Part shown: one piece after another, positions 1,421 through 60,123 of the stretch | How positions within the stretch are numbered: position 1 is the first letter of the stretch | How the letters are laid out: every line of letters begins with the position of its first letter | Assembly (NCBI GenBank): GCA_900771805.1 | Contig: CAAGPL010000045.1 | Span: 70,856-134,855, forward strand | Source of the DNA: Bacilli bacterium | GTDB lineage: Bacteria; Bacillota_I; Bacilli_A; RF39; UBA660 | Length of the DNA: 64,000 bases | Reading direction: 5' to 3' | Notes under the pieces: generated by a model | Seen by the model: the letters and a program-made list of their open reading frames with translations, nothing else | The model's database searches: none | What the model was told of the DNA's origin: nothing | Position numbers and translations under genes: made by a program

Positions 1421-1424
1421 AGTA

Positions 1425-4096: not shown

Positions 4097-4098
4097 TT

Positions 4099-4611: not shown

Positions 4612-4637
4612 ATTTTCATCTCTCCTTTTTTCTTATT

Positions 4638-5474: not shown

Positions 5475-5492
5475 TATCTCACCTCCAAAACT

Positions 5493-7611: not shown

Positions 7612-7613
7612 AA

Positions 7614-9591: not shown

Positions 9592-9633
9592 CTCTTTTCA
9601 AAGAAAAAAAGAACTCATCAATCTGATAAGTTC

Positions 9634-10053: not shown

Positions 10054-10072
10054 TATAAGTATAACATTTTTT

Positions 10073-10435: not shown

Positions 10436-10532
10436 ATTTATTTAATCTATTTATTTGTATACAACACATAAACATTGTTGCTATTATTCCTCCTATTAAA
10501 GTTCCAATCATAAAAAATAATAATTCTCTCAT
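10392..10532 (-). CDS. Possible 46-aa single-TM peptide (not in ORF track)
   Basis: My translation: MRELLFFMIGTLIGGIIATMFMCCIQINRLNKYEEYKSSEDSSDEE. A GAAAGGAAG Shine-Dalgarno lies 6 nt upstream. The 3' end overlaps the mobC start out of frame. Confidence 0.35.
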   Translation of the reverse strand: MRELLFFMIGTLIGGIIATMFMCCIQINRLNKYEEYKSSEDSSDEE

Positions 10533-10565
10533 TTTAATCTTCCTTTCTAATTTTATTTTTTTAAT

Positions 10566-10605
10566 AGTGGGGATTGGGGTTTCCCCATAAGAATATTTAT
10601 GGGAG
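10566..10605. promoter_or_regulatory. GC-rich overlapping hairpins, candidate oriT
   Basis: TGGGGA(10568-73)/TCCCCA(10582-87) and CCCATAA(10584-90)/TTATGGG(10597-603) share the CCCC run. They lie in the only sizeable non-coding gap of the relaxosome region. Confidence 0.35.
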
Positions 10606-10651
10606 TAAATATTCAGTGCTGGCTAGGACATAAAATACAACTATTCTAGTG

Positions 10652-11614: not shown

Positions 11615-11631
11615 TATTTATACCACTCTTT

Positions 11632-11973
11632 TTAGAATCTTTGACTCACTTCCGATTTGTGTCGGTCTTTTGAAGTTAAGAATGTTACTCTTTCACCTGT
11701 TATTACTATTTTTTTATTATTCTCGCTATCAAAATTTGGTTCTAGTTTTCCTCTTATTCCAAGCATATCTCCCTTCTTACAATAATTTGAAGTGGTTTCG
11801 GCTACATTATTCCACAATGTACAATCTATAAAATCAACATCATTCTCTCCATTAGAATTTTTATAATTTCTAGGGACTGCTATCGTTATATTTGATACTT
11901 TTTTTCCATTTTCTAATTCTACTATCTCTGGGTCCTTTGCAAGTCTTCCTATTAAAACAAATTGATTTAACAT
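11632..11973 (-). CDS. ssb: Single-stranded DNA-binding protein (short, ICE-borne)
   Basis: 113 aa; OB-fold start MLNQFVLIGRLAKDPE; no long acidic tail. Confidence 0.8.
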   Translation of the reverse strand: MLNQFVLIGRLAKDPEIVELENGKKVSNITIAVPRNYKNSNGENDVDFIDCTLWNNVAETTSNYCKKGDMLGIRGKLEPNFDSENNKKIVITGERVTFLTSKDRHKSEVSQRF

Positions 11974-11974
11974 A

Positions 11975-12301
11975 TTATAATTCCTCCTTTATTTGTCTAT
12001 TTTTTGTTAATAAGTCATAATAATCATAAGAAGTTTTTTCCTCTGATTTTAAATTATTAATTAATAAAAACATCAATTGTGATGCTTCTGATAAAAATAA
12101 TCTAATCACAACTGATGTCTTAGAACCTTCCTCGTTTGGAATGCTATATTTTAAAATTTTTTCTTTTAAGTTTTCGCCAACGTTGTTAGAATTATCTAAG
12201 ATTGATAAAACATTGTTAAACATATCAATAGTTAATTCTAATTTAATCGGCGGAATTCTTTTTTTATAAGATATAATATCACTTCCTTTCATTAATTTCA
12301 C
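11975..12301 (-). CDS. Hypothetical 108-aa ICE protein
   Basis: ORF packed between the sortase and ssb genes; no motif recognised. Confidence 0.55.
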   Translation of the reverse strand: MKLMKGSDIISYKKRIPPIKLELTIDMFNNVLSILDNSNNVGENLKEKILKYSIPNEEGSKTSVVIRLFLSEASQLMFLLINNLKSEEKTSYDYYDLLTKNRQIKEEL

Positions 12302-12902
12302 ATGTAATTATTAGTTGTTTATTAGTGTTGTGAACACATGTAACTAATATAAGTTCTTTTGAAGAAATAGAATTACTAATCTTTAATTTTCCCGTTTTTT
12401 CTATTTCTTTTATATTGTTAACCTTGTAAGAGTAACTTTTTCCTTTATAAAACACTATAACATTGTCATTAATATTAAGCCTATTTAAATTTTTAAAATA
12501 TGATATCTTACTAGTTCCGGAATGAGCATAAAGAATCAATCTTCCTTCTACATCAGGAAAAGTACTTGTTTGATCAGCACTTATTGCATAATTAATTGAT
12601 TTAAAGTTCTTCGTCGCCATGACAATGCCTTTTCTTAACTTTATTTTTGGTATTTCTAATACTGCTATATAATTTAACTTATTCGATTTTAAACTTACAT
12701 TCTTTTTAACATCTTGAGAAGTATTAATTATTTGATCATAATTATTTATGTAAGTTTCTATAATTTCTTTATCTTTTTTGTTACTTATATAATTAAAACC
12801 TATAATATATATAACAATAAAAATTCCAATTAGTAATAAAAGAACTCCTATTGAGTATAAAATACTATTTTTCTTTTTTAACATTCTTTTTGTGTTTAGC
12901 AT
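12279..12902 (-). CDS. Sortase (ICE-encoded)
   Basis: 207 aa; N-terminal TM anchor; catalytic His context LYAHSG and Cys context LILVTC. Confidence 0.8.
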   Translation of the reverse strand: MLNTKRMLKKKNSILYSIGVLLLLIGIFIVIYIIGFNYISNKKDKEIIETYINNYDQIINTSQDVKKNVSLKSNKLNYIAVLEIPKIKLRKGIVMATKNFKSINYAISADQTSTFPDVEGRLILYAHSGTSKISYFKNLNRLNINDNVIVFYKGKSYSYKVNNIKEIEKTGKLKISNSISSKELILVTCVHNTNKQLIITCEINERK

Positions 12903-15384
12903 AAGTTATAATTACAACTCCTAGTACTATTAAAGTACATGGTATTAAAATTTTTAAAAAGTTAAAACTTGCATCAGTATTTGGAACTTCGATTATCAAT
13001 TCATCTTCTAAAGTGGCTTTAATTATTTCACCATTTTCTTTAATGCTAAAATACTGACGTTCAGGATTTATTTTATAGTTCTTTGGTGCTTCTTTTTCAA
13101 TCAAATAATAGTCATTTACAGGTAAATCATCTATTACTATTTTGCCATTTGCATCAGTTATTCCAGAGAAAATCAATTCATCTTTAGTTGTATAAATTTC
13201 TATCTTAGTATTAGGTAATGGTTTTCCTGTGGATAAATCTATTTTAGTAAAATCTAAAGTTCCCTTCTTATATTTGTTTAATATATCAAATGATTTAGTC
13301 ACGACTTCTGTATATTGATCCTTATAAGTAAGCTCAAAATCATATTCTTTAGTATCTAATACCAAATTATCATTAGGTACTGATAGTTCTTTTATATAAT
13401 ATTTTCCAAGAAACAAGTTATCAAGTTCAGCAACACCTTCATCATTTGTATAAATTGTAGATATTAATTCATTCTTTTTGTAATGTTTTTTTCCATCTTT
13501 TGTTATAATATCTTCTCTTGCATATATACCGAATTTTACACCTTCTAGTGATACCTCTTCATAAGAATAAGATCCGTTTTTAATAATCAATTTTTCTCCA
13601 GTTTTATTTATTGTTACTTTCCCTTTAACTTGTTGATTTTTAAATTTAACTAGAATCATTGTTCCGTAATCGTTATCTGTTATAAGTTCGGAATTTTCTC
13701 CTATTTCAAACTCCATAGAATTTGAATTCCATAAATAACCATCAATTTTTTGATCTATTTCTTCAAGACGATATTTACCAGATTTAAGTGCATAAGGTGT
13801 AATAAACTCACCATTTTCATTTGTTTCAAATTCACATATTTTTTGAGCATTTGGATAAGTAACATTTTGACATACATATTCATTGTTTTGTAAATCAAAT
13901 ATTTTGAATTTAATACCGGACATTTTTATTACCTCTTTAGAATCAGCGTCTATTTTAACAACTTTTAATTTTGCTTTAATTTCAGCATTTGATATTAAAT
14001 GATAATATGGTTCTTCGGTATTTTCGTTTATAGTTATTTCAAAATCTTCTATTTTTTCATGATTTAATGTAGATGATACTTGTTTAACAATGTATTTCCC
14101 ATAAGGTAACACTGCTTCAGCATATCCTTTCTCATTGGTTGTAATTCTTGCTACTTTTTTATTTGATGATTTTAAATAAATATCAAAAGAAACGTTTGGT
14201 TCACCAATTAAGAAACCCGTTTTATCTGTTGCAAAAACCTTAAATAAATCAAAATGTCTTTCGATTACTTTTTCATAAACAGTAACTGTTGGATATAAAT
14301 TATCTTTTGTAATTACAAAATAATATCTATTATCAGTATCTAATTCATAACCTTGTGAGGGTGTCTCTTCTTGTAAATAATATCTACCTTGAGATGGTAA
14401 AGTTCCACTTGTTACAATTCCCTTATCATTGGTTGTAATAGAAGATACTTTTGTACCATCTTCTTTATAAATACCATAAGTTGCACCTTTTAATGTTGCA
14501 TCACCTTGAGGTACTGATAACTTTGTATCTTTATCAACTTTATTTATTGTTACTTTACCACCAATTGATTTAATCTTTAAAGATACTCTATATGGATCTA
14601 TGTTACCCGCGGTCATCAAATTTTGAACTCCATCCGCAACAAAAACAAATGCACTCTTTCCAAATCGATTAGAATTTTTAGATAACTGAATTGTAATATC
14701 TCCAACTTTATTAGGCGTAATATAAAGTTTATTACCATCTTTTTTTATTGTTGCGTTATCATTTGTTGATACTTCATAATTACTTAATACATTATTTGTA
14801 TCATCTAAAACTATCGTATCATTTACTACAACAGTATTATTACTATTTGCAAATGATGGTGCTTTATAATGATTATTTACTAAATTCAATAATTCTGCTG
14901 ATTCAGATTCAAACTGTGAAATATTATTTCCATGAAAACTATCAGCCCAATACGTATCCCAACCTAAAGGGTTTGCTTTCCAAATTTCATATTGAGTTAT
15001 TGCGTACCATTTACTATCAGTATGATTACCATATCCATATCCATAATAAGCTAGTAACGTAATTCTACGCCAAGTATCTATACTCATTCCAGATACATCA
15101 GATTGATTATAATCATATCCTGTAAGTGTTGCACTATCTGAAAAATCAATACCTGGTTCAATACAATATGCAATCTCCGAATCACTACGTTTGTGATAAA
15201 CTTGGATTCTCTCTGATCTTTCTACTCCATTTTTATATTTATTTACATAAATCTTTGGTGTAATCCATTCAAAATAGAATGAATCACTAGTTAATGCTTT
15301 AGCTTTTGTAGTTGCAATTAGCGAAACTATTCCAAACAAAAAAATGGGAAATACCCATTTTAATTTTTTTATAATTTTTTTCAT
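12865..15384 (-). CDS. Cell-wall-anchored thioester-domain adhesin with repeated CnaB/SpaA-like domains
   Basis: 839 aa. It has a signal peptide, then AYCIEP and AITQYEIW (Cys-Gln thioester motifs). Repeated GKVTINK/VVKIDADS modules follow. The C-terminus is VPNTDAS, a hydrophobic helix and a KHKKNVKKEK tail. Confidence 0.75.
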   Translation of the reverse strand: MKKIIKKLKWVFPIFLFGIVSLIATTKAKALTSDSFYFEWITPKIYVNKYKNGVERSERIQVYHKRSDSEIAYCIEPGIDFSDSATLTGYDYNQSDVSGMSIDTWRRITLLAYYGYGYGNHTDSKWYAITQYEIWKANPLGWDTYWADSFHGNNISQFESESAELLNLVNNHYKAPSFANSNNTVVVNDTIVLDDTNNVLSNYEVSTNDNATIKKDGNKLYITPNKVGDITIQLSKNSNRFGKSAFVFVADGVQNLMTAGNIDPYRVSLKIKSIGGKVTINKVDKDTKLSVPQGDATLKGATYGIYKEDGTKVSSITTNDKGIVTSGTLPSQGRYYLQEETPSQGYELDTDNRYYFVITKDNLYPTVTVYEKVIERHFDLFKVFATDKTGFLIGEPNVSFDIYLKSSNKKVARITTNEKGYAEAVLPYGKYIVKQVSSTLNHEKIEDFEITINENTEEPYYHLISNAEIKAKLKVVKIDADSKEVIKMSGIKFKIFDLQNNEYVCQNVTYPNAQKICEFETNENGEFITPYALKSGKYRLEEIDQKIDGYLWNSNSMEFEIGENSELITDNDYGTMILVKFKNQQVKGKVTINKTGEKLIIKNGSYSYEEVSLEGVKFGIYAREDIITKDGKKHYKKNELISTIYTNDEGVAELDNLFLGKYYIKELSVPNDNLVLDTKEYDFELTYKDQYTEVVTKSFDILNKYKKGTLDFTKIDLSTGKPLPNTKIEIYTTKDELIFSGITDANGKIVIDDLPVNDYYLIEKEAPKNYKINPERQYFSIKENGEIIKATLEDELIIEVPNTDASFNFLKILIPCTLIVLGVVIITYAKHKKNVKKEK

Positions 15385-15420
15385 CCTTTCCTCCTTAAAA
15401 AAAATGCTCTTATATGAGCA

Positions 15421-15978
15421 TTAATTAACATTGTGCCAATCTATTGTACTATTATTATCATCATACAAAGATAGCATCCAATAAGTTTTTCCACATTCAT
15501 CAGTTAAACTATCACAATTATATCCATATCTACCTAAATATGAATTTCCTTTATTAACACATTCACCTCTTGATTCAAAATCAGGTCTAAACCAAGAAAA
15601 TGCAAACTTTTTAGGTGTACATGATTTTGTTGTAGTAACAATTTTTGTAGTAGTAACTGGTTGTGTAGTAGTCTGTTGTTGTTTTCTTTTTACAGTTGTT
15701 GTTTTATTGGCTTTAACCGTTGTTTTATTTTTTTCTGATGTTGTCTTAGAAACCTGATCATCATTCTTTTTTGTAGTTGATATTGTCGATTCTTTGGTAT
15801 CTTCACTATCAGGTTTTTCAATATTTTTGCTTGTTTTTTCTTTATTTGTTTTTGATGTTGTAGTTTTATTTTGAATAGATGAGGTTGTTTTTTTTGAATC
15901 AACACACAATAGAATTACACCCAATATTGCAAATAACAAAAATATTGTTATAACTATAATCAAAATTTTCTTTTTCAT
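15421..15978 (-). CDS. Membrane-anchored/secreted Thr/Lys-rich protein with Cys-containing C-terminal domain
   Basis: 185 aa; N-terminal TM, low-complexity linker, and a C-terminal ~70 aa with 4 Cys. Confidence 0.6.
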   Translation of the reverse strand: MKKKILIIVITIFLLFAILGVILLCVDSKKTTSSIQNKTTTSKTNKEKTSKNIEKPDSEDTKESTISTTKKNDDQVSKTTSEKNKTTVKANKTTTVKRKQQQTTTQPVTTTKIVTTTKSCTPKKFAFSWFRPDFESRGECVNKGNSYLGRYGYNCDSLTDECGKTYWMLSLYDDNNSTIDWHNVN

Positions 15979-16138
15979 AAAATTTCTCCTTGTCTTTAAT
16001 TAGTTAGAGCATAACATTAAAATTTCTTTTTTGTCAAACTTTGTAATGAATTTAATATCTTTTTCAGTTAGTAATATATAGTTAGTAATAATATAGGGGT
16101 AGGTTGTAGGGAGGGGAAATATGTAAATAATACTCCCA

Positions 16139-17071
16139 CTATCTTTCCCTATCTTTACATCTTTGTAAATACTTATTGTAATAATCCAATGCTTTAAATA
16201 TATACTCCTTATACTTTGTCGGTGGCATATTTTTTGGCATCTTACTTTTTAAACTTCTCATTTCCAATTTTAGTTTTTCAACTTGATTAGCTTTCTCTTG
16301 AGATAATATTTCATCCACTTTTTGTTGAGTTAAATTACCATCCTGACTTAATCTTTTTAACTGCTGGGATTGTGATAAAGATGGTGTAGCTAAATTTTCT
16401 TCTATACTATCTAAAAACCAATCTTGTTCTTCTTTAGTAAGAAATGATATTTCAACTGCTGGAGAAAAAGCTATTTTTTCTTCATCTACCATATCAAGTA
16501 AGGGTTTAATTAATTTAGTAAGACGTATATATCTTTGAATTTGTCTAGCACTATCTCCAACCTGATTAGCTATTTTAGAATCAGTACGATACTTCGTGCC
16601 AACTTGGCACGAAGATAAATATGTCTTCTTCCCTTGATGTTTTTCAGCTTCTAATTTCATTTGATAAGCAAAGGCTTTTTCACTTGGTAAGATATGTTCT
16701 CTTTGCAAATTACTATCTACCATTGCAATTATTGCTTCATCATTACTTAAATTTCTAACAATGCAAGGAATTGTATATTTATCTGCTAATTTACTTGCGT
16801 ACATTCTTCTATGACCAGAAATCACTTCATACCTACCATTATTTTTTGGTCTAACTAATATAGGTGAAATAACTCCTTTTTCAACAATACTATCACGCAA
16901 GTTATATAAATCTTCGTTTTCTACGACATTAAAAGGATGATTTGGAAAACTATCTATATCATCAATATTAATATCTTTAATCCTTTCTAGATCTTTTTCT
17001 TGTCTTTCCTGTTCTGTTGTAAATATGTCATCTAATCTCGAAAGTGGCATTCTTTGATAGCTCTTTTCCAT
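16139..17071 (-). CDS. parB: ParB/Spo0J-superfamily protein, ICE/plasmid type
   Basis: 310 aa; ParB N-terminal box ISGHRR; overlaps the parA end. Confidence 0.8.
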
Positions 17072-17852
17072 TATCTAAAACCTCCTTTGCAAACGACGAA
17101 TAAGCGTCTGCAACTTTACTTTTCTTTTGGTACGAAAATATACTTTTTCCATAAGAAGTTGACTCCGCTGTCTTTATTGCTATTGGAATATAAGTGTTAT
17201 AAATCTTTAAATGATCTCCATAATCTCTTTTCAATTGTGTTTTAACTTGTTTTGATAAATTTGTTCTATCATTAACTAATGTGAATAGAATACCATCTAT
17301 CTTTAATTTTGGGTTTATACGGCGTTTAACACGCGAAATTGTATTAATTAGATGTATCATACCTTTAGCAGCTAAAAACTGGCTCTGAACCGGTATTATT
17401 ACACTATCAGCACATGCAAGTGCATTAATAGTTATCATTCCTAAACTAGGCATACAATCTATAATTATATAATCATATTTTTCCTTTAATGGAATTAAAC
17501 AATTTTTCAATGTATATTCTCTACTCATAGCATTAACTAAAGACATTTCTAATGCAGATAAATCTAAATTAGATGGTATTAAGTTAACACCTTCTTTATG
17601 ATGCAATATAGATTTACTTATTTGTATATCCTTATCTTCAATAGCTTGTCCCATTATATCAGCCAATGTAATTGGTATTTCATCTTGTTTATACCAACCC
17701 ATACAGGTTGTTAGATCACCTTGAGGATCAGCATCTACTAAAAGTACCTTTTTACCTTGTGATGCTAAAGCAACACCCAAATTAAAAGTGGTTGTCGTTT
17801 TTCCAACTCCTCCTTTTTGGTTTGCAATAGCTATAATTTTACAGTTTTTCAT
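17028..17852 (-). CDS. parA: ParA/Soj-family ATPase, ICE-borne
   Basis: 274 aa; deviant Walker A KGGVGKTT. Confidence 0.85.
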
Positions 17853-17931
17853 ATATTAATTACCTCCTTGTATAACTCAAAAATACTTACTTAACAAACA
17901 TCAGCCTTTGTTACTTAGTGCAGAATTTATG

Positions 17932-17966
17932 AAAAAAACACCAATTTTTATTAAATTTGGTGTTTT
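17932..17966 (-). terminator. Rho-independent terminator at the ICE right end
   Basis: Minus strand reads AAAACACCAAATTT-loop-AAATTGGTGTTTTTTT; lies between the yabG fragment and parA. Confidence 0.7.
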
Positions 17967-18019
17967 GATACATATAATCTATATTTTAGAATTTCCTTAT
18001 TTTATAAGGGTTTCAGGGC

Positions 18020-18352
18020 TTATTTTGAAACTGAACTTGTTAAAATATCAGCGTCTATATGCAAAATTTTTCCAGGAATATAAAAAAAATCACTTCTTTC
18101 AAAATTTCTAATGGTTCTCATTTTTTCATAAAAAACAAGGTCGTCATCTAAATCAATATTATCAACTAAAACCAAATCATTTATTTTACTATCAGCACAT
18201 AATCTCACATTTATTCCTTTTAAATAAGCAGTATCTTCTTCTATTTTATATATTTTAAATATTACATCATTTTCATAAGATTTTCTTGTAACCACGCTAC
18301 CTACTTGAAACAACTTTATCACCCAATTAAATATATGCAAAAAAAAAATCAA
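18020..18352 (-). pseudogene. yabG: yabG (sporulation cysteine protease) 5' fragment, truncated by the ICE
   Basis: VGSVVTRKSYENDVIFKIYKIEE... and FFYIPGKILHIDAD parallel B. subtilis YabG GDMVARKSYQMDVLF and FHMPGKVLHLDGD. The frame then gives 8 unrelated residues and a stop. The position after rsmA matches Bacillus synteny. Confidence 0.75.
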
Positions 18353-28684: not shown

Positions 28685-28984
28685 TTATAGAAGTCCACCT
28701 AACGCTCCAGCTTGACTACCTAATTTATTATTTATTTCTTTTTCTACTTTTTTCAAAGCATCATTCATAGCTAAAATTATCATATCTTCTAATATTTCAA
28801 TATCTTCTTGTTCTAAATTCATATTTTCTTTTATTTTAACAGATATCACTTCTCTTTTTCCATTAATTTTCACTGTAACTAATTCTGAAATACCTTCAAA
28901 TGTCATTTCTTCTATTTTTTTCTTTGAATCCATTAGATTTTTTTGCATAGCTTGTGCTTGCTTCATTAAAGCTTGTATATTCAT
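28685..28984 (-). CDS. ybaB: Nucleoid-associated protein YbaB/EbfC
   Basis: 99 aa; MKQAQAMQ start; lies between dnaX and recR. Confidence 0.9.
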   Translation of the reverse strand: MNIQALMKQAQAMQKNLMDSKKKIEEMTFEGISELVTVKINGKREVISVKIKENMNLEQEDIEILEDMIILAMNDALKKVEKEINNKLGSQAGALGGLL

Positions 28985-30600
28985 TATTTTTCCTCCATTT
29001 CAATTAAATCATCAAATTCATTAACAGAATTATTTTGTTGTATTTTTTTTATTTTTGATAATAAAAATTCTTCATCTTTTATATCTAATTCATTATTTTT
29101 AACTAAATTAACATATTTAGGTCTTATTTCTTTCCAATAATCAAGGGTTATACTCACAATTTTATATTTATGATTAAATCTTTTTTGTACTATCATTTTA
29201 CATTTATCATAATTTGATTCTATTTTATTTAATAGTCCTTCTGTTGGGATAGTTAGTATAATACCATCTGATGATGCTGCAACTGGAACGGCATCAAGTA
29301 ACAAACCAACAGATTTTTTTAAACTTTCATCAAGTAAATATTCTTTTATATTTTTCCATTCTTTTTGAATTCTATTAAATTCTTGCTTAGTAGATTTTTT
29401 TAAAATATTATTAATTCTTATATCTTTTAATTTTTTAATATTATTATTTAAATTTTCTTGTTGTAAATCCTTTTTATTTTTATCTTTTTCAGTATTTTTA
29501 ATTAATGTTTCACGTGAAACATTAATTTCATCCATCATTTTAAGTATATATACCTCAAAAATCAATTCTTTTTGTGAAGTTTGATTTAATTTTTTGTTTA
29601 ACTCAGACGTATCATCTAATAATTTATATAATATTCTTTCATCTATTGATTTAAATTCAGAAAAATCAAAATCATTTAATTTTTCATTATTATCTTGTAA
29701 AACATTTTTTTTATATAATATAATTTTATATAAGCAATCTATAATTTTTTGTAAAATTAAATTAAAATCTTTTCCTTTATTTGATAATTCTTTTATATAT
29801 TTTATTGTTTCAGCATATTTTTTATTAATAATATTTATTAAAAATTCAAAAATTTGTTTGTTTGATATAGTTCCAGATAATTCTTGTACATTAATTAATG
29901 TTATTTTATCATCAGAAAAAGCAAAAGCTTGATCCAACATACCTATTGCATCTCTCATTCCTCCATTTGAATTTAAAATTATTTCATCAAGTGCTGATGA
30001 TTCAATATTTATATTTTCTTTTTCTATAACATTTTTTAAACATTTTTTCATACTTTCTTTTGAAATACTTTTAAAATCAAATCTTTGACATCTTGAAATT
30101 ACTGTTGTAGGCAATTTTTGAGGTTCTGTGGTTGCTAATATAAAAATTATATATTCTGGCGGTTCTTCAAGTGTTTTTAATAAAGCATTAAATGCTCCTA
30201 TAGATAACATATGAACTTCATCTATAATATATACTTTATATTTTGACATTGCTGGAACTAAGTTAACTTTATTTCTTATTTCTCTTATTTCATCTACACC
30301 ATTATTTGATGCAGCATCTATTTCTATGATATCAGGATTACTATTATTATTGAATGACAAACAATTTTCACACTCATTACAAGCATCACCTGTTGTCATA
30401 TTGTTTAAACAATTTATAGCTTTTGCAAATAATTTTGCACAACTAGTTTTTCCTGTACCTCTTGGACCCGTAAATAAATATGCATGACTTAATTTGTTGT
30501 TTTTTATAACATTTTTCAACGTTTTTACAATTGTATCTTGTCCATATACCAAATCAAATGATTTTGGTCTATATTTTCTATATAATGTTTGATATGCCAT
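28984..30600 (-). CDS. dnaX: DNA polymerase III subunit tau/gamma
   Basis: 538 aa; GPRGTGKTS Walker A, a Zn module, and IIDEVHML. Confidence 0.95.
   Translation of the reverse strand: MAYQTLYRKYRPKSFDLVYGQDTIVKTLKNVIKNNKLSHAYLFTGPRGTGKTSCAKLFAKAINCLNNMTTGDACNECENCLSFNNNSNPDIIEIDAASNNGVDEIREIRNKVNLVPAMSKYKVYIIDEVHMLSIGAFNALLKTLEEPPEYIIFILATTEPQKLPTTVISRCQRFDFKSISKESMKKCLKNVIEKENINIESSALDEIILNSNGGMRDAIGMLDQAFAFSDDKITLINVQELSGTISNKQIFEFLINIINKKYAETIKYIKELSNKGKDFNLILQKIIDCLYKIILYKKNVLQDNNEKLNDFDFSEFKSIDERILYKLLDDTSELNKKLNQTSQKELIFEVYILKMMDEINVSRETLIKNTEKDKNKKDLQQENLNNNIKKLKDIRINNILKKSTKQEFNRIQKEWKNIKEYLLDESLKKSVGLLLDAVPVAASSDGIILTIPTEGLLNKIESNYDKCKMIVQKRFNHKYKIVSITLDYWKEIRPKYVNLVKNNELDIKDEEFLLSKIKKIQQNNSVNEFDDLIEMEEK
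29506..29521. promoter_or_regulatory. parS: parS site 1 (perfect TGTTTCACGTGAAACA), inside dnaX
   Basis: Exact 16-mer read in the sequence; part of a 24-bp palindrome; encodes NVSRET of DnaX. Confidence 0.8.
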
Positions 30601-30660
30601 GCAATCACCTCTGATAAGTATTATAACATTTTAAAACATATTTTAAAACAAAAACGATAA

Positions 30661-30676
30661 TGTTTCACGTGAAACA
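30661..30676. promoter_or_regulatory. parS: parS site 2, at the tadA stop in the tadA-dnaX gap
   Basis: Exact 16-mer within a 26-bp perfect palindrome, GATAATGTTTCACGTGAAACATTATC. Confidence 0.8.
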
Positions 30677-31087
30677 TTATCTTACTTTTTTAAAAAAAGA
30701 TTGTAATAAATTTAGTGATTCTTTCGTATATAAATTATTTTTATAAATATATTTATTTTTATCAATTAATATTTGTTTATCTTTTTTTACTAAATAATAT
30801 ATTCTTTTTATTCTTGATAATTCTATTGCAGAAGAACACATTTTGCAAGGTTCCAAAGTTACATACATTTCACATTCATTTAATCTCCAATTTTTTAATT
30901 TTTTTGAAGCTTTTTTTATTGCTAATATTTCAGCATGCATAGTTGCGTCATGATTTTTTTCTATTTTATTATATGCTTTTGCAATTATTTTATTATTCTT
31001 TACAATTATTGCTCCTATTGGAACTTCGTTTTTTTTATAAGCTTTTTTTGATAATTTTATTATTTCTCTATAAAATCTTTCTTGCAT
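30677..31087 (-). CDS. tadA: tRNA-specific adenosine deaminase
   Basis: HAE...PCKMC deaminase zinc motifs; 136 aa. Confidence 0.9.
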   Translation of the reverse strand: MQERFYREIIKLSKKAYKKNEVPIGAIIVKNNKIIAKAYNKIEKNHDATMHAEILAIKKASKKLKNWRLNECEMYVTLEPCKMCSSAIELSRIKRIYYLVKKDKQILIDKNKYIYKNNLYTKESLNLLQSFFKKVR

Positions 31088-31101
31088 TATATCTTTATTA
31101 A

Positions 31102-31117
31102 TGTTTCACGTGAAACA
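31102..31117. promoter_or_regulatory. parS: parS site 3, immediately upstream of tadA
   Basis: Exact 16-mer read in the sequence. Confidence 0.8.
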
Positions 31118-31146
31118 TTCCCTTCTTTTTTTAATTTTTATATTTA

Positions 31147-31162
31147 TGTTTCACGTGAAACA
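31147..31162. promoter_or_regulatory. parS: parS site 4, just downstream of the SRP RNA 3' end
   Basis: Exact 16-mer read in the sequence. Confidence 0.8.
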
Positions 31163-31182
31163 TTATTTTTTTATGTAAAATA

Positions 31183-31258
31183 AAAGCACACACAAAAAGG
31201 GGTTATTAAGGCTGCTATCTTTCAATCCTGACCTAATTCTAACATTTTTGTTGTGCAA
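31183..31258 (-). ncRNA. ffs: Small (4.5S-type) signal recognition particle RNA
   Basis: Minus strand reads GCACAACAAAAATGTTAGAATTAGGTCAGGATTGAAAGATAGCAGCCTTAATAACCCCTTTTTGTGTGTGC. It contains the domain IV signature GGTCAGG...GAAA...AGCAGCC. The terminal helix is GCACAACAAAAA/TTTTTGTGTGTGC, followed by a T-run. Ends are approximate. Confidence 0.75.
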
Positions 31259-31308
31259 TTACATTTTATTATAATATTAAAAAATAATCAAGTTATTTTA
31301 AACAAATA

Positions 31309-31324
31309 TGTTTCACGTGAAACA
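31309..31324. promoter_or_regulatory. parS: parS site 5, between the gyrA stop and the SRP RNA promoter
   Basis: Exact 16-mer read in the sequence. Confidence 0.8.
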
Positions 31325-31338
31325 TATTAAAAGAGACT

Positions 31339-33810
31339 TTATTCTGTCTCTTTTATTTCATTATTATCTTTTGAATCTTCTATATTTTCATCATCTTTTT
31401 CTACCACTGATACTGTTGCAACTTTTTGTCCTTCTCTTAAATTCATTAGTTTAACTCCCTGCGTTACTCTACTCATTCTTGATACTTTATCAGCTGAGAT
31501 TCTTATAACAATGCCTTGATCAGTAATGATCATTAAATCTTTATCATCAGTTACAGTTTTAAATGCTACTATTGTTCCGTTTTTATCAGTAATATTTAGT
31601 GTTTTAACACCCTTACTTCCACGGTGAGTTAATCTATATTCATTTACATCTGTTCTTTTGCCATAACCTTTTTCAGTAACAACTAATATATCTTGATTTT
31701 CCTTGGCTATTTCAGAACCAACACAGAAATAATTATCAGATAATTCAATACCTTTGACTCCACTTGCAGTTCTACCCATAACTCTTATTTCATTTTCATT
31801 AAATCTTATCATTCTACCATTGTTCGATGCTATAACAACATCCTCATTACCATTAGTAAAATGAACAGACAATACTTCATCATTTTCTTTTAAAGTTATT
31901 GCAATTTTACCATTTTTTCTAATATTTTCAAATTCACAAACATTTGTACGTTTTATAATTCCATATTTTGTTGTGATTACTAAATATTTATTTTTTTCAT
32001 TTCCATTATCTAATAAAATATTATTTACTTTTTCATCTTTTTCTATTGGTAATAAATTAATTATTGGTAATCCTTTTGATTGTCTTGAAAATTCAGGTAT
32101 TTCATAACCTTTTATTCTATAAACTTTACCTTTATTAGTAAAGAATAACACATGATTATGAGTGGTTCCTGACTTAAGTATTTCAACAAAATCCTCATCA
32201 TTTGTAGACATACCTTTAATTCCTACTCCACCTTTGTTTTGAAGCTTGTAAGTATCTGTTGGCATTCTCTTAATGTATCCTTTGTGAGTTAATGCAACAA
32301 CTATATCTTCAACAGGAATTAATGATTCATCTTCAATATAATCAATAGCTGTCATATCAATAGAAGTTTTTCTTTCATCACCAAATTTATTTTTAACTTC
32401 AAGTAATTCTTTTCTTACAACTGCTAAAACATTTGCGTCACTTGATAATATTGTCTTTAATTCTTCAATTAACTTTAATAAATCTTGTAATTCTGCTTCA
32501 ATTTTACTTCTCTCTAGTCCTGTTAATCTACGAAGCTTTAATTCTAGGATATTATCTGCTTGAACTTGTGAAAAACCAAATCTACTTATTAATTTTTCTT
32601 TAGCTACTACATCACTTTCAGCTTCTTTAATGATTTTAATAACTTCGTCGATATTATCTAAAGCTATTTTATAACCTTCTAATATATGAACTCTATTTTC
32701 AGCTTTTTTAAGATCAAATCTAGTTCTTCTTATTATAACTTCTTTTTGATAATCAATATATTTTGAAATTATATCTCTTAATCCTAATGTTTTTGGTGTT
32801 CCGTTATCTAACATTAAGAAAATAATACCAAAATTTGATTGAAAAGCAGTATGTTTATATAAATTATTTAATACAACTTGTGGATTTGCATCTTTCTTTA
32901 GTGTAATTGTTATTTTTACACCATCTTTAAGGTCAGTATGATAATCAGATATACCATCTAAAACCTTATTGTGTACTAAATCTGCAACTTTATTTTTAAG
33001 TTCTTGAGTATTTACACCATAAGGAACTTCATCAACAATTATATAATTACGACCATTTTTTTCTTCTATTTTAGCCTTACTTCTTATAGTAATTGAGCCC
33101 CGTCCTGTTTCATATGCTTGTCTTATACCTTTATTTCCAAGAATTATACCTCCGGTTGGAAAGTCAGGTCCTTTTACATATTGCATTAATCCTAGTGTAT
33201 CTATTTCAGGATTATCAATATAAGCAACACATCCATCTATAACTTCCGATAAATTGTGTGGTGGAATATTAGTTGCCATACCAACTGCTATACCCATTGT
33301 TCCGTTTACTAATATATTAGGAAATCTTGAAGGTAAAATGGCTGGTTCTTTTTCAGATTCATCAAAGTTTGGAACAAAATCTACTGTATCTTTATTAATA
33401 TCTCTTAATAATTCTAATGATATTTTTGATAATCTAGATTCTGTATAACGCATTGCAGCTGCTCCATAACCTTCTATATTACCAAAGTTTCCGTGTCCAT
33501 CAACTAACATATAACGATATGAAAAGTCTTGAGCCATACGTACCATTGCTTCATATATTGAAGAATCACCATGTGGATGGTATTTACCCATTACATCACC
33601 GACGATTCTCGCCGATTTTTTATGTGGTTTATCAGGTGTATATCCAGATTCATACATAGAATATAATATTCTTCTATGAACAGGTTTTAAACCATCTCTT
33701 AAATCTGGTAGGGCACGTGATACTATTACACTCATTGAATATTCCAAGAATGAAGTTTTTACTTCATCTACTATATTATTATGCTCTAATCTATCTCTAC
33801 TATGATCCAT
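31339..33810 (-). CDS. gyrA: DNA gyrase subunit A
   Basis: 823 aa; [17 protein letters not shown] and active-site AAMRYTE. Confidence 0.97.
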
Positions 33811-36963: not shown

Positions 36964-37428
36964 TTATTTGTTATTTTTTTCAAAATTAATTAACCTTTTT
37001 GAAAATAAAGACTCTAATCTTGAAGATCTTAGTATTTGATTATCAATTATTCCATATGAAATTTCAAGTTTTATCTTTTTTCCACAATTAAATTTTATAA
37101 TTGTATCCCCATATAATTTATAATAATCACTGATATTATTTAAAGATATCCAACTACAACGTTCTAATCTAGGTGATGTTGTTGGAAAAAAAATCATTTT
37201 ACTACTTTCTTCTATTATTATTGGCGATTTGTGTGATATTCCAAGTATACTTTTTGTACCACTAAATCTACCATCATAACTACTTCCAAAATATTTACAA
37301 CTATTATCAATTATTTTTAATGGTGATAAATTAATATAAATTTCTTTATCCTCTTCTATTATTTTAGATTTATCTTTTCCACAAGATAAAATTGCTAAAG
37401 TACTTCTATTAATTTCATAATTTTTCAT
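36964..37428 (-). CDS. comK: ComK-family competence transcription factor
   Basis: YEINRSTLAIL, PLKIIDNSCKYFGSSYDGR, ISHKSPIII, IFFPTTSP and CSWIS align block by block with B. subtilis ComK. The start is taken at the internal ATG 37428, which has an AGGGGGA SD. Confidence 0.8.
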   Translation of the reverse strand: MKNYEINRSTLAILSCGKDKSKIIEEDKEIYINLSPLKIIDNSCKYFGSSYDGRFSGTKSILGISHKSPIIIEESSKMIFFPTTSPRLERCSWISLNNISDYYKLYGDTIIKFNCGKKIKLEISYGIIDNQILRSSRLESLFSKRLINFEKNNK

Positions 37429-37461
37429 AAAATTCCCCCTAAAATTAAAATATTGCAATTA

Positions 37462-38679: not shown

Positions 38680-38791
38680 TTATTATTATTACTGTGGATA
38701 ATGTGGAAAACATTGTTTTTTATTATAATATAAAGTATTTTTATTAATTTTTTTCCACATAATAATTTGTAAAACTTATAATTATTCCACA
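38680..38791. promoter_or_regulatory. oriC: oriC part 2 (dnaA-dnaN intergenic): four DnaA boxes plus a (TAA)4 trio-like repeat
   Basis: TGTGGATAA at 38693-701 is tandem with TGTGGAAAA at 38702-710. Further boxes are TTTTCCACA at 38751-759 and TATTCCACA at 38783-791. On the minus strand the tandem boxes are followed by G-TAA-TAA-TAA-TAA (38680-38691). Confidence 0.75.
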
Positions 38792-38797
38792 GGCTAA

Positions 38798-40147
38798 TTA
38801 TAATTTGCTTTTTAAACCATTAATAATTTCTTTAAATTGAGGATTTGTTTTTATTTCATTTTCAATTTTATCAACAGAATGCATTATTGTAGAATGATCT
38901 CTTCCTCCAAATTGAATACCAATTTTAGGAAAAGATTCATCTGTTGTTGTTCTACATAAATATATAGCAACTTGTCTTGGAAAAGCAATAGATGCTTTTC
39001 TTTTTTTAGATTTTAAATCTTCAACTGTTATATTGTAATATTCAGCAACAACTTGTTGTATTTTTTGGATGTTATTTTTTATAAAAGAAGATTTAGAAAG
39101 ATAATCTTTTAAAGCATCTATTGCTAAATTAAGATTAATATCTCTTATATTAAACATAGTAGCATAAGCTATTACCCTTGTTAAAGCTCCTTCTAATTGT
39201 CTTACGTCTGAATCACAATTATTAGCAATGTATGCTATAACATCATCATTAATTGTTCCATCCATATTTTGACCAATAATTTTTTTTCTTAATATTTCTA
39301 CCCTCATCTCGTAATCAGGTGGATAAATATTTACACTAAGTCCCCAATTAAATCTAGTTCTTAATCTATCTTCTAATTTTTTTAAATCATCAGGTGATCT
39401 ATCAGAAGATATAATTATTTGTTTATTATCATCATATAAATTATTAAAGGTATTAAAAAATTCTTGTTGTGTTTGAGTAGCACCACCTAAAAATTGAATA
39501 TCGTCAATTATTAGAACGTCAACTCCCCTATATTTATTCTTAAAACTATCAATATAACTAAAATTAGTACCGGATTCATCTTTTTTATTAATATTTAAAA
39601 AATCTGATATAAACTGTTCACTTGTTACATATAGAACTTTTTTATTTGAATTTTCAATAATAAAATTTCCGATTGCATGCATAAGATGGGTTTTACCAAG
39701 TCCACTATTTCCATATAAAAATAGTGGATTATAAGTCTTTCCTGGGTTTTCCGCAACAGATACAGCAGCCATATAAGCAAATTTATTGCTCTCACCTACT
39801 ATAAATGAATCAAAAGTATATTTAAAATTTAAATTAGATTTTAAAGGTGTATTAAGTGGAACACCAATATTATCAATAGGAATATTAATGTTTTTATTTA
39901 CTTCATCTTCAAAAACAAATTCAAAATCAAAACTAGTATTTGTTATTTCACTAAATACATCAGATATTGTTTGATACCATGTTTCTTGTAAGCTTTTCTT
40001 TTGAAGTGGCGAATCAACAAGAATTTTAGCTATATTATTATCAAGTGATACTAATTTAGTATTTTTAAACCAAGTATCATATGATAAAGAAGATATTCTT
40101 GGTTTAATTTTTTCTAGGAAATTATCCCACAGATTATCTATGTTCAT
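38798..40147 (-). CDS. dnaA: Chromosomal replication initiator DnaA
   Basis: 449 aa; GNSGLGKTHL Walker A and C-terminal DNA-binding motif GGRDHSTIMH. Confidence 0.97.
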   Translation of the reverse strand: MNIDNLWDNFLEKIKPRISSLSYDTWFKNTKLVSLDNNIAKILVDSPLQKKSLQETWYQTISDVFSEITNTSFDFEFVFEDEVNKNINIPIDNIGVPLNTPLKSNLNFKYTFDSFIVGESNKFAYMAAVSVAENPGKTYNPLFLYGNSGLGKTHLMHAIGNFIIENSNKKVLYVTSEQFISDFLNINKKDESGTNFSYIDSFKNKYRGVDVLIIDDIQFLGGATQTQQEFFNTFNNLYDDNKQIIISSDRSPDDLKKLEDRLRTRFNWGLSVNIYPPDYEMRVEILRKKIIGQNMDGTINDDVIAYIANNCDSDVRQLEGALTRVIAYATMFNIRDINLNLAIDALKDYLSKSSFIKNNIQKIQQVVAEYYNITVEDLKSKKRKASIAFPRQVAIYLCRTTTDESFPKIGIQFGGRDHSTIMHSVDKIENEIKTNPQFKEIINGLKSKL

Positions 40148-40204: not shown

Positions 40205-40474
40205 TGTGGAAAAACAATGTTTAATAATAAATATTATTTATCCACAATAGTTTTCCACAATATAAAACGTTATTTTACAACAAAATTCGACATAATTCAC
40301 ATATCCACAAATTTAATCATTATAAAAAAAGTAATAAACAAAAATAGTTTTCCACAGCTTGTTAATAAATCCTTATATTATTTAGATAATTGATAAAAAA
40401 AGTATTTTAACTGTGGAAAACATTGTGATTAAACAATTAAACATATTTTTTTTTAAATATAAAGTAGTGGAAAA
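40205..40474. promoter_or_regulatory. oriC: oriC part 1 (upstream of dnaA): DnaA-box cluster followed by a very AT-rich stretch
   Basis: Boxes are at 40205-213, 40238-246 (perfect TTATCCACA), 40251-259, 40301-309, 40348-356, 40412-420 and 40466-474 (imperfect). A nearly pure A/T run spans 40440-40540. Confidence 0.8.
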
Positions 40475-44852: not shown

Positions 44853-46667
44853 ATGAAATACGATGTTATAGTTGTTGGAGCAGGACACGCTGGATGTGAA
44901 GCAGCACTTGCGTGTGCTAGAATGAAAAAAAATACGCTTCTTATAACAATTAATATTGATAATATAGCAGATATGCCTTGTAATCCTTCTATAGGAGGTT
45001 CAGCTAAAGGTATTGTTGTAAGGGAAATTGATGCATTAGGTGGTGAAATGGGACGTAATGCAGATAAAACTCTTCTTCAAATGAAGATGCTTAACCAATC
45101 TAAAGGACCTGCTGTTAGAAGTTTAAGAAGTCAAGCTGATAAAGTAACTTACAAAAGAGAAATGTTAAAAACATTAAGAAATATAGAAAGTTTAACAATT
45201 AAAGAAGCAATAGTATCTGACCTTTTAGTAGAAAATAACAAAATTGTTGGTATAACAACTGAAGATGGAGAAACAATTTATTGTAAAGCTTGTATATTAA
45301 CTACTGGTACTTATTTAAAAGCTGATATATTAGTAGGAGATAAAAGAACTCCAGAGGGTCCACACGGAGAAAAAAGGGCTAATTTTTTAAGTGAGAATTT
45401 AAAAAAATTAGGTTTTAAGATACTTAGATTAAAAACTGGAACTCCACCTCGTATAGAAAGATCTTCAATTGATTTTAGCGTACTTAAAAGAGAAGACGGA
45501 GACGACTCTAAACTAACCTTTTCTTTTGATGATATAGCATATTACGATTATAAAAATCAGGTACCTTGCTATTTAACTTATACTAACTTAAAAACTCATA
45601 AAATAATTATGGATAACTTAAATAAATCTGCTATGTATGGTGGTTTTTATGAAAAATTAGGAACAGGTCCTAGGTACTGTCCTTCAATAGAAGATAAGGT
45701 GGTTCGTTTTAAAGATAAAGAAAGACATCAATTATTTTTGGAACCAGAAAGTATGTATTATGATGATATATATTTACAAGGTTTTTCAACTTCTATGCCG
45801 CACGACGTTCAAGAAGATATGGTTCACTCTTTAAAGGGATTAGAACACGCTAAAATATTAAGATATGCTTATGCAATAGAATATGATGCGATAGATCCAC
45901 TTCAATTAAAACCATCTTTAGAGACAAAGGTAGTAGAAAACTTATTTACTGCAGGTCAAATAAATGGTACCTCGGGGTATGAAGAGGCCGCAGGTCAAGG
46001 TATAGTAGCGGGTATTAATGCTAGTTTAAAACTAGATAATAAAGAACCACTAATTCTTTCTAGAAGTGATGCTTATATTGGTGTTTTAATAGATGACTTA
46101 GTAACAAAAGGAACTATAGAACCATATAGATTACTTACTTCTCGTGCAGAATTTAGACTTTTACTAAGAAGTGATAATGCCGATTTAAGATTAAGTGAAA
46201 AAGCTTATAAAATAGGTTTATTAAGTGAAGAAAGACATAATAAATTATTAAATAAAATAAAAGAAATAAAAGAAATAGAAGAAGATATTAAAAATATTAC
46301 TTTTCCTAAGGAAAAATGCAACTTATCAGAATATTTAAAAAGACCAGAAGTTAAAATAATAGATTATGTGGATAAATTAAATAAAAAATATAGTAAAGAA
46401 GCATTAGAACAAGTAGAAATTAATCATAAATATGAAGGTTATATTATTAAAGCTAAAAAAGAAGCTGAAAAAATGATTAAATTAGGTAAAAAACAGATAC
46501 CAGAAGATATAGATTATGAAAAAGTTGATAATTTAGCAACAGAAGCAAGACAAAAACTTGAAAAAATAAGACCAAGAACCATTGATCAGGCAACACGTAT
46601 TAGTGGTGTTAATCCATCAGATATAGCAATTTTAATGGTTTATTTAAAGAGGTTTTATAATGAATAA
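44853..46667 (+). CDS. mnmG: tRNA uridine 5-carboxymethylaminomethyl modification enzyme MnmG
   Basis: MKYDVIVVGAGHAGCEA FAD motif. ATG at 44853 with an AGGTGAAAG SD is preferred over the track's TTG start. Confidence 0.95.
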   Translation: MKYDVIVVGAGHAGCEAALACARMKKNTLLITINIDNIADMPCNPSIGGSAKGIVVREIDALGGEMGRNADKTLLQMKMLNQSKGPAVRSLRSQADKVTYKREMLKTLRNIESLTIKEAIVSDLLVENNKIVGITTEDGETIYCKACILTTGTYLKADILVGDKRTPEGPHGEKRANFLSENLKKLGFKILRLKTGTPPRIERSSIDFSVLKREDGDDSKLTFSFDDIAYYDYKNQVPCYLTYTNLKTHKIIMDNLNKSAMYGGFYEKLGTGPRYCPSIEDKVVRFKDKERHQLFLEPESMYYDDIYLQGFSTSMPHDVQEDMVHSLKGLEHAKILRYAYAIEYDAIDPLQLKPSLETKVVENLFTAGQINGTSGYEEAAGQGIVAGINASLKLDNKEPLILSRSDAYIGVLIDDLVTKGTIEPYRLLTSRAEFRLLLRSDNADLRLSEKAYKIGLLSEERHNKLLNKIKEIKEIEEDIKNITFPKEKCNLSEYLKRPEVKIIDYVDKLNKKYSKEALEQVEINHKYEGYIIKAKKEAEKMIKLGKKQIPEDIDYEKVDNLATEARQKLEKIRPRTIDQATRISGVNPSDIAILMVYLKRFYNE

Positions 46668-47361
46668 AGAAGAATTTGTAAAAGAAGTAGAAAAGTTAGG
46701 TATAAGTGTAGATGATAAAATACTTAAGAGTTTAAATACTTATTATGAAATGTTAATAGATTATAATAGTCATACAAATCTAACTAGAATAACTGATGAA
46801 GAAGAAGTATATTTAAAACATTTTTATGATAGTTTAACTCTAATTAAAGCTGTTAAATTAAATAACCAGACTCTTCTTGATGTAGGAACAGGGGCAGGAT
46901 TTCCTGGATTGGTTTTAAAAATAGTATTTCCAAACCTTAAAGTAACACTAGTTGACTCTTTAAATAAAAGAATTATATTCTTAAAAAGTGTTATAGAAAA
47001 GTTAAATTTAAAAGGTATTAATGCTATTCATGAAAGGATAGAAGACTATGCAAAAATAAATAGAGAATCCTTTGATATAGTAACTTCTCGTGCAGTAGCA
47101 TCCCTTCCTTTGTTATCAGAAATGTGCATCCCTTTAGTTTGTGAAAAAGGCTTATTTATTCCAATGAAAGCAGATGCAAAAGATGAAATAAAATCATCAA
47201 AAAATGCTATAAAAACACTAGGAGGAGTGTTAAGAGATACCATTTTATTTAAACTACCAAAGGATGCTGGAGAAAGAACTTTAATAATTATAGAAAAAAT
47301 CAATAAAACAAGTGTTAAGTATCCAAGAAAATTTAGTGAAATTAAGAAAAAGCCATTGTAA
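46660..47361 (+). CDS. rsmG: 16S rRNA G527 methyltransferase RsmG
   Basis: 233 aa; DVGTGAGFPG SAM motif. Confidence 0.93.
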   Translation: MNKEEFVKEVEKLGISVDDKILKSLNTYYEMLIDYNSHTNLTRITDEEEVYLKHFYDSLTLIKAVKLNNQTLLDVGTGAGFPGLVLKIVFPNLKVTLVDSLNKRIIFLKSVIEKLNLKGINAIHERIEDYAKINRESFDIVTSRAVASLPLLSEMCIPLVCEKGLFIPMKADAKDEIKSSKNAIKTLGGVLRDTILFKLPKDAGERTLIIIEKINKTSVKYPRKFSEIKKKPL

Positions 47362-47409
47362 TAAAGGCTTTTTTATTATATTATTATATTAAAGATAGGG
47401 GATGGCAAT

Positions 47410-48627
47410 ATGTTTAATAATGAAAATAATAATTTTAATAATAATGTACCTAATGCACCACTTTTTTCAAATGAATTTAATAATCCACAACAAAATGATA
47501 ACTATACACCTTATCCTCAACAAGATGGTTCATTAAATAATTCTTATGATAATACAATTCAAAATTCAAATGATCAAGTTGCACTTTTTTCAAATGAATT
47601 TAAACCAGTATCAAATGAATATGATAATTTATATCAAAATATACAGCCTCAAAATAATTTGAATTCTTATAGTCCACAAACACCACTTTTCTCAGAAAAT
47701 AATAGCAATATATTAAATCAAAATACAAATATGTATCAAAATAAAGAACCTATGGATATTCCCCCTCAATTAGGTGAAATTAAAAATTTAAGTGAAGCTA
47801 CAATTTCATATGCACCAACTATGGACGTTTTAGATCCAATGAATATTATGCCAGAAGAAAAAGCAGTACAAGATCCATTAGAAGCATATGATAACGGTTA
47901 TTTAAATTCTAACGCAAATGCAAATATTAATCAAAATGTAAATTCAAATATCAATACAAACATTAATCCAATTGATAATTATAATATGAATAATTTTTCT
48001 AATATGCAAATGAACTCAGATTTAAATAATAATCCAAATTTACAAAATATAAATAATAATCCTTTTTATAACCCAAATGTTTCTAACAATTTAAATTCTT
48101 CTATGTTTAGTCCTATTCAAAATGAACAAAATAACATATCAACAAATGAAAACTTCTCATCAAATATCAATTTAAGTAATAATGATATTAATAACAATAT
48201 AAATTTATCAAATTCATATGATAATAATTCAAATAATAATAACTTTTCATTAAAATCATCTGAAGAATTAAATCAAAATATTAACATGGATAAAACTATA
48301 AATAATAATGCTGAAAACACTTCATCACCATATGAAATTATTCAAAATGAAAAATTAAGTGATAATGAAAAAGATGAAACTTCATTTTTGGGATTAGATG
48401 ATGAATACAATAACGATTCATTAGATATAATGGATTTAAATGATGATAAAGAACAAGATGAAATCAAAGTAAATAATGATTCATCAGAAACTAATCAAAA
48501 TTCAAATGATGCATTAGATAGAATAAAAAAGTTAATAGAAGAGTTAAATAAAGAAGATAAAAAGATTGATGTACAAGAATTTAATTTTGATAATCTAGTT
48601 CAATTAGTAATAAAAATATATAATTAA
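47410..48627 (+). CDS. Asn/Gln-rich low-complexity protein with a short ordered C-terminal domain
   Basis: 405-aa uninterrupted ORF in an AT-rich genome; AGGGGA SD; repeated PLFSNEF/ALFSNEF/PLFSEN motifs. Confidence 0.7.
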   Translation: MFNNENNNFNNNVPNAPLFSNEFNNPQQNDNYTPYPQQDGSLNNSYDNTIQNSNDQVALFSNEFKPVSNEYDNLYQNIQPQNNLNSYSPQTPLFSENNSNILNQNTNMYQNKEPMDIPPQLGEIKNLSEATISYAPTMDVLDPMNIMPEEKAVQDPLEAYDNGYLNSNANANINQNVNSNINTNINPIDNYNMNNFSNMQMNSDLNNNPNLQNINNNPFYNPNVSNNLNSSMFSPIQNEQNNISTNENFSSNINLSNNDINNNINLSNSYDNNSNNNNFSLKSSEELNQNINMDKTINNNAENTSSPYEIIQNEKLSDNEKDETSFLGLDDEYNNDSLDIMDLNDDKEQDEIKVNNDSSETNQNSNDALDRIKKLIEELNKEDKKIDVQEFNFDNLVQLVIKIYN

Positions 48628-54022: not shown

Positions 54023-54037
54023 GACTTTTTTCTTTTT

Positions 54038-54163: not shown

Positions 54164-54202
54164 TTAAATATCCTCCTTTCATAAACTTATTTAATCACTT
54201 TG

Positions 54203-60045: not shown

Positions 60046-60069
60046 TAACACATGTTATTTATATTAATT

Positions 60070-60094: not shown

Positions 60095-60123
60095 ATGTCG
60101 TAAAACAGAAAGGATGATGTAAA

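Follow-up and report, generated by a model that had tools for sequence, protein, structure and literature searches.

The DNA considered here, a 64-kb stretch of a Bacilli bacterium genome (GenBank assembly GCA_900771805.1, contig CAAGPL010000045.1, positions 70,856 to 134,855) to which we refer as the window, carries next to its replication genes five copies of a palindrome that matches parS, the chromosomal site bound by the partition protein ParB. The window has a G+C content of about 25% and reads well with the standard genetic code. On its minus strand dnaA (38798-40147) is followed by dnaN, a gene of the ComK family, recF, gyrB and gyrA, and then by the gene for the small signal recognition particle (SRP) RNA, tadA, dnaX, ybaB, recR and holB. 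Six DnaA boxes with at most one mismatch are clustered upstream of dnaA (40205-40420) at the point where the GC skew changes sign, near 40 kb, and a second DnaA-box cluster is found between dnaA and dnaN (38693-38759); the skew switch and the two box clusters together indicate that the replication origin, oriC, flanks dnaA. The segment of interest, entirely encoded on the minus strand, extends from gyrA (31339-33810), which forms its upstream boundary in all related loci that have kept the gene order, through an intrinsic-terminator-like hairpin of gyrA (31328-31355), the SRP RNA gene (31172-31267; RF00169, 54.1 bits) and the tRNA adenosine deaminase gene tadA (30677-31087) to dnaX (28984-30600), which encodes the gamma/tau subunit of DNA polymerase III.

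The exact 16-mer TGTTTCACGTGAAACA occurs five times in the window, at positions 29506, 30661, 31102, 31147 and 31309, against a chance expectation of 0.00 in dinucleotide-preserving shuffles. At all five sites it is preceded by an A and followed by a T, which yields the common 18-mer ATGTTTCACGTGAAACAT, and every copy is a perfect match to the parS consensus TGTTNCACGTGAAACA. The initial annotation, made from the sequence before the present analysis, had described five exact copies with a shared 18-mer, in the fully symmetric form of the site recognized by Spo0J, the ParB of Bacillus subtilis, and both statements hold as written. Its placement of the copies at the tadA stop, upstream of tadA and on both sides of the SRP RNA gene likewise agrees with the coordinates of the cluster, which spans 1.8 kb (29506-31324). 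Site 1 (29506-29521) falls within dnaX, where it is in frame and encodes N-V-S-R-E-T as part of the variable linker that follows domain III; presumably this is the same frame, N-V-(S/P)-R-E-T, as that of the parS inside B. subtilis spo0J. Sites 2 and 3 stand on either side of tadA, the former (30661-30676) abutting its stop codon and 60 bp ahead of the dnaX start, and the latter (31102-31117) 15 bp upstream of its ATG. Sites 4 and 5 similarly bracket the SRP RNA gene, with site 4 (31147-31162) 10 bp past the RNA 3' end, a position conserved in the two nearest relatives (L001 and L002, see below), and site 5 (31309-31324) between the gyrA terminator hairpin, which directly precedes it, and a promoter-like site of the SRP RNA gene. 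The pattern search with mismatches that had been proposed for these sites, carried to three mismatches across the 64 kb, found nothing beyond the cluster except a two-mismatch site at 1944, within a conjugation gene, and no further site turned up in a total of about 80 kb comprising the window, about 10 kb past its right end and the element-free left flank of another strain. A dispersed repeat of the REP or MITE kind (repetitive extragenic palindrome or miniature inverted-repeat transposable element) was rejected on the grounds that no copy lies outside the 1.8-kb cluster in these 80 kb and that the five copies show no relationship to one another outside 18-26 bp. The Noc-binding site (NBS; core ATTTCCCGGGAAAT) was likewise discarded, having no match in the window at up to three mismatches; the five sites are parS and not NBS. 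Measured from the DnaA boxes and the GC skew, the cluster lies 7.4-10.9 kb from oriC on the dnaA-gyrA arm, and hence is origin-proximal as had been stated; the distance first given was 9-11 kb.

With DnaX as the query, 80 loci were obtained from species-representative genomes. The nearest of these, L001 and L002, encode GyrA proteins 79% and 92% identical and DnaX proteins 64% and 60% identical, respectively, to those of the window. The gene order gyrA-SRP RNA-tadA-dnaX-ybaB-recR is common to 11 loci, all from uncultured low-GC Bacilli. Ten of these (L001, L002, L005, L008, L015, L021, L024, L028, L032 and L048) carry 2-10 parS sites, all within the gyrA-to-dnaX interval, and the eleventh, L009, has a single degenerate site. 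Arrays are also present in L029 and L054, which are cut by a contig end upstream of tadA, making twelve related loci with arrays, whose DnaX proteins are 39-64% identical to that of the window. In the distant members all sites fall within the gene-poor spacer between gyrA and the SRP RNA gene, which is 0.4-1.0 kb long with a G+C content of 15-23%. A second strain of the window's own species, 98.8% identical in the region, has the same five sites.

Among the 57 sites with at most one mismatch the preceding base is A in all 57 and the following base T in 55, and within the 16-mer nearly all of the variation falls on position 5, where T or C is found, and position 12, with A or G; these are the N of TGTTNCACGTGNAACA and correspond to the position left free in the B. 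subtilis consensus. Further outward there is a symmetric preference for a pyrimidine at -3 and a purine at +18, owing to which palindromy often exceeds the 18-mer (mean extension of 1.9 pairs versus 0.46 by chance, p = 1.5e-5). Purifying selection was assessed by aligning the interval of the window with those of L001 and L002; in this three-species alignment 92% of the parS columns are invariant, as compared to 56% in the other intergenic sequence, 81% in the SRP RNA gene and 60% in tadA. Taken together, these comparisons indicate that purifying selection acts strongly on the cluster throughout a clade of uncultured gut Bacilli of low G+C content, and the conservation pattern, as read from the sequences, is that expected of a dimeric protein that binds DNA sequence-specifically and has the canonical specificity of ParB. 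A comparison with the same intergenic regions in relatives, suggested at the outset as a check, thus bears out the identification: the sites are conserved far above background and vary almost exclusively where the consensus is free.

The arrays were found with Tandem Repeats Finder to be tandem duplications of whole units. The unit is 44 bp long in L001 and in L002, and in the latter it is repeated 3.6 times with 99% identity between units; L029 has a 62-bp unit, and the units of L008 and L028 are longer, at about 125 bp and 167 bp, respectively. Further, in the subclade that includes the window, parS copies occur in the DnaX linker just after domain III, always in the frame (N/D)-V-(S/P)-R-(E/G)-T, with one copy in the window (29506-29521), two in L001 (11068 and 11137) and three in L002 (11101, 11146 and 11191), the last being spaced at 45 bp, or 15 codons. 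The repeat structure of these arrays indicates that the number of sites changes through tandem duplication.

Based on these observations we propose, with a probability of roughly 80%, that the five palindromes are functional chromosomal parS sites which together form one compact origin-proximal centromere 7-11 kb from oriC. Support for this proposal comes from the match to the consensus, the position near the origin, the conservation of the location, the pattern of variation and the evidence for selection, together with the independence of the sites from a nearby mobile element, an internal control provided by the NBS, the canonical ParB proteins of relatives, and precedent in other bacteria, which are taken up below.

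Several other explanations of the sites have to be weighed against this proposal. One is that the palindromes act mainly at the level of RNA or transcription, as terminator or insulator hairpins or as the operator of another regulator, and that their identity with parS is secondary. Site 2 fits such a role best, as it is the central part of a perfect 26-bp palindrome, flanked by T-runs and located immediately behind the tadA stop, which scores as a terminator on both strands and gives an RNA hairpin of -15.7 kcal/mol; it probably also serves as the terminator hairpin of tadA. Sites 2 and 5 moreover lie 13 bp and 17 bp upstream of the -35 boxes of promoter-like sites of dnaX and the SRP RNA gene, respectively, both of which are conserved in three species, and the extension of palindromy beyond the 18-mer in excess of chance could be read in the same way. 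However, site 2 alone qualifies as a terminator, and a terminator function for all five was therefore discarded: sites 1, 3, 4 and 5 form hairpins as any palindrome would, with no U-tract on the transcribed (minus) strand. A terminator stem, further, requires pairing and not an invariant 18-base sequence, whereas here the sequence is fixed and identical to the universal ParB site. One copy sits in a coding region, in the distant relatives 4-6 copies lie in 0.4-1 kb of gene-free spacer, a place where a series of terminators would have no purpose, and the preference at -3 and +18 is symmetric, as for a dimeric DNA-binding protein. The products of the neighboring ybaB (YbaB/EbfC family) and comK-like genes were also considered as readers and set aside; the ComK box (AAAA-N5-TTTT) and the site of Borrelia EbfC (GTnAC) do not match the 16-mer. 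As to effects of ParB itself on transcription, loss of Spo0J in B. subtilis left the expression of genes beside parS unchanged, and in Pseudomonas aeruginosa ParB affects adjacent genes at two intergenic sites, with repression being possible (PMC7022226). On this balance a primarily transcriptional role of the palindromes is decidedly unlikely. It is more improbable still that the sites are the centromere of an integrated conjugative element and are read by that element's own ParB. This element occupies approximately 1-18035 of the window, is inserted in yabG, of which it has left a 110-aa fragment (18020-18352), and encodes a VirB4-like ATPase, a type IV coupling protein, a MobA/VirD2 relaxase, NikA/MobC, a DUF3991-Toprim protein, SSB, a sortase and a SpaA/thioester adhesin. 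It also encodes a ParB-family protein (16139-17071, minus strand; TIGR00180, 99 bits; PF02195) and a ParA-family protein (17028-17852, minus strand), a pair only 12-14 kb away from the sites in the same window. The element ParB, however, can be aligned with canonical ParBs in its N-terminal domain only. The residues through which ParB contacts parS are G170-K171-S172-R173, N178, G201 and R204 (Jalal et al., PMC7383237), and at these positions the element protein has GDSA...R...SPAV in place of the canonical GKSR...N...GHxR, without equivalents of K171, R173, N178, G201 and R204; the absence of these contact residues implies that it is not the reader of the sites. In the element-free strains L085 and L086 yabG is intact (242 aa) and veg comes after it, with no ParAB at this place, and all five parS are retained in an element-free strain of the window's species; relatives likewise carry arrays in the absence of the element. 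Within the element itself there is no parS other than the two-mismatch hit at 1944, and a search for repeats around its parAB that might be a centromere of its own gave nothing convincing.

A difficulty for the proposal arises from the genes that might encode the cognate ParB. In L106, L108, L109, L110, L111 and L113, relatives whose MnmG proteins are 61-67% identical to that of the window, rsmG is followed by a Noc-type gene (GKSQ...RHAR), soj and a ParB-type gene (GKSR...GHAR). In the window the corresponding place (46660-48627, plus strand) is taken by rsmG and a gene for a 405-aa Asn-rich protein, followed by rpiB and spoIID, and the contexts of RsmG homologs show the same ParB-less arrangement on the L001 contig. 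Judging by gene order, the genus has lost noc-soj-spo0J from its usual place after rsmG. Searches using tblastn with B. subtilis Spo0J and Soj matched nothing in the window except the pair of the conjugative element, and gave no match in the dnaX loci of the clade or in the same-species loci around mnmG. No canonical ParB was detected in extensions of about 17 kb, made up of about 10 kb past the right end and the element-free left flank, or within approximately 30 kb on either side of oriC, and SMC-ScpAB was not seen in the sequence examined. The initial annotation had made its interpretation depend on a chromosomal ParB with a matching helix-turn-helix; in this it is not upheld by the window and its extensions, where the only ParB is that of the element. 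One orthologous site, in addition, has decayed in L001. All these observations count against functional parS sites. The missing operon, the lack of a canonical ParB near oriC and the decayed site would also suit an alternative in which deletion of the operon after rsmG cost the genus its ParB along with noc and soj, leaving the sites as decaying relics that no longer have a function. Nevertheless, the window species and L001, both without the operon, retain 5 and 7 intact sites, and L002, whose rsmG locus was not looked at, has nine sites with at most one mismatch and one symmetric variant with two mismatches. The parS columns are more conserved than even the SRP RNA gene, and there are lineage-specific expansions, namely the nearly uniform 44-bp array of L002 and the one, two and three sites inside dnaX. 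What real relics look like in this genus is illustrated by the NBS: it is frequent in relatives and has vanished completely from the window, as from L001 and L002 (at most one mismatch), where its absence, along with the lack of a noc gene in the window, fits the loss of Noc. The NBS thus acts as an internal control, against which parS persisted under selection, and decay is accordingly quite unlikely as an account of the sites. Unlikely too, if by a little less, is that the array is under selection but read by something other than an orthologous Spo0J, either a relocated orphan ParB without Soj or a non-orthologous parS-binding protein; if true, this would be a reduced genome whose centromere has outlived the canonical partition operon. 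Given that parS has been retained and is under selection, we infer that this genome encodes a canonical ParB at another place.

If the five palindromes are functional parS sites, established ParABS biology suggests how they would work. CTP (cytidine triphosphate)-bound ParB dimers would load at each site, close into clamps and slide onto the flanking DNA. With five sites within 1.8 kb this would build a single dense partition complex, probably reaching oriC, which would drive segregation of the origin and, provided that the genome has SMC-ScpAB, also load condensin. Occupancy of the sites by ParB, its spreading and the loading of SMC are thus expected here by analogy.

Tight parS clusters on one arm are already known, and the cluster itself is ordinary and would not surprise a specialist. 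In Caulobacter crescentus a 5-kb segment at a distance of about 8 kb from ori, on the left arm only, holds the five strongest of the parS1-7 sites as one ParB nucleation zone (PMC5815017), much as in the window; unlike in Caulobacter, five perfect sites are here packed into 1.8 kb in a low-GC Bacillota host, and they flank the SRP RNA gene and tadA rather than parAB, with no parAB found nearby apart from the pair of the conjugative element. Corynebacterium glutamicum has ten parS in 35 kb, nine of them intergenic (PMC7083940), and P. aeruginosa four near oriC, where most species have more than one (PMC7022226). The parS1-10 and parS1-4 sets of these two species resemble the present one in being clustered, mostly intergenic consensus sites near oriC, but at 35 kb and about 15 kb they are much less dense. 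The initial annotation had presented the cluster as what would be a very concentrated center on one replichore only; it is indeed dense and confined to one arm, but in light of the Caulobacter and C. glutamicum precedents it is not unusual. The accompanying statement that the B. subtilis sites are more scattered is correct, their strongest members being 5-39 kb apart (PMC5815017), which makes B. subtilis the less clustered case. In C. glutamicum and P. aeruginosa one parS is enough for function, with extra copies being redundant (PMC7083940, PMC7022226). B. subtilis Spo0J-parS otherwise shares with the window an identical consensus, variation at the same degenerate position and the gene order dnaA-dnaN-recF-gyrB-gyrA ... 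tadA-scr-dnaX-ybaB-recR, and differs in that its parS are mostly in coding regions and its noc-soj-spo0J lies beside rsmG. The Noc-NBS system of Bacillota is comparable to ParB-parS as a paralogous CTP-dependent clamp acting on a related 16-bp palindrome; in contrast to the window, with neither NBS nor noc, relatives carry NBS, and in four of them these are interleaved with parS within one spacer.

In these four relatives the tandem unit of the centromere spacer contains a parS together with a perfect NBS (L008, 8622-9327; L029, 18-435; L021, 9280-9394; L032, 9350-9418). The composite units amount to 5.6 copies of 125 bp in L008 and 6.7 copies of 62 bp in L029, and predicted ParB and Noc loading sites thus alternate beside the SRP RNA gene. 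Our literature search for composite parS/NBS arrays found no report. Outside the low-GC clade, L067, a Clostridiales metagenome-assembled genome (MAG) with 63% G+C, has three perfect parS in 330 bp at a contig edge (52-383), and hence dense parS arrays are not limited to this clade. Concerning the identity of the organisms, an RsmG 73% identical to that of the window is listed by NCBI under Candidatus Aphodocola sp. The L001 record (CAYOWI010000005.1) is labelled 'uncultured Muribaculaceae bacterium', and in gene order, G+C content and proteins it corresponds to a low-GC Bacillota; the label of this MAG looks like a taxonomic misassignment.

The Asn-rich protein encoded after rsmG is 405-437 aa long (window, 46660-48627; L092, 10001-12030) and has no family match; it displays a conserved MDIPPxLGEIKxLxEAT...APTMDVLDPMN motif and a short C-terminal domain. 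In L108 (11858-15773) the Noc-like protein, at 479 aa, is unusually long and has a similar low-complexity tail. Derivation of the 405-aa protein from Noc was considered in view of the same position and layout as the L108 protein, but was not supported, the BLASTP E-value being 0.48 and a Pfam match being absent. Elsewhere in the window, the ComK-family gene (36964-37458, minus strand; PF06338, E = 7e-45) lies between dnaN and recF within the core origin cluster, and an agr-like quorum-sensing set (52005-54808), with a LytTR response regulator, a histidine kinase (HATPase_c_5) and AgrB (54203-54808), is located about 12-14 kb from oriC. A second mobile element follows secA, covering 58726-64000 and about 5 kb beyond (L081-L084), and encodes a tyrosine integrase (58726-60045), a PemK-family toxin (62894-63244), a cold-shock protein, a CAP-domain protein and helix-turn-helix regulators. 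The exact PemK protein occurs in 1977 blocks of the public collection, which suggests that gut metagenomes very commonly contain this element or its host.

What is specific to the lineage, then, is the address beside the SRP RNA gene, the density of five sites in 1.8 kb, growth by tandem duplication and the missing partition operon. The sites described here would map the centromere of a prevalent uncultured lineage of gut Bacilli and make the gyrA-SRP RNA-tadA-dnaX interval a conserved centromere address in the clade. They also bear on how bacterial centromere regions expand, which in this group appears to involve both the tandem duplication of 44-, 62-, 125- and 167-bp units and the addition of in-frame copies in the disordered linker of DnaX.

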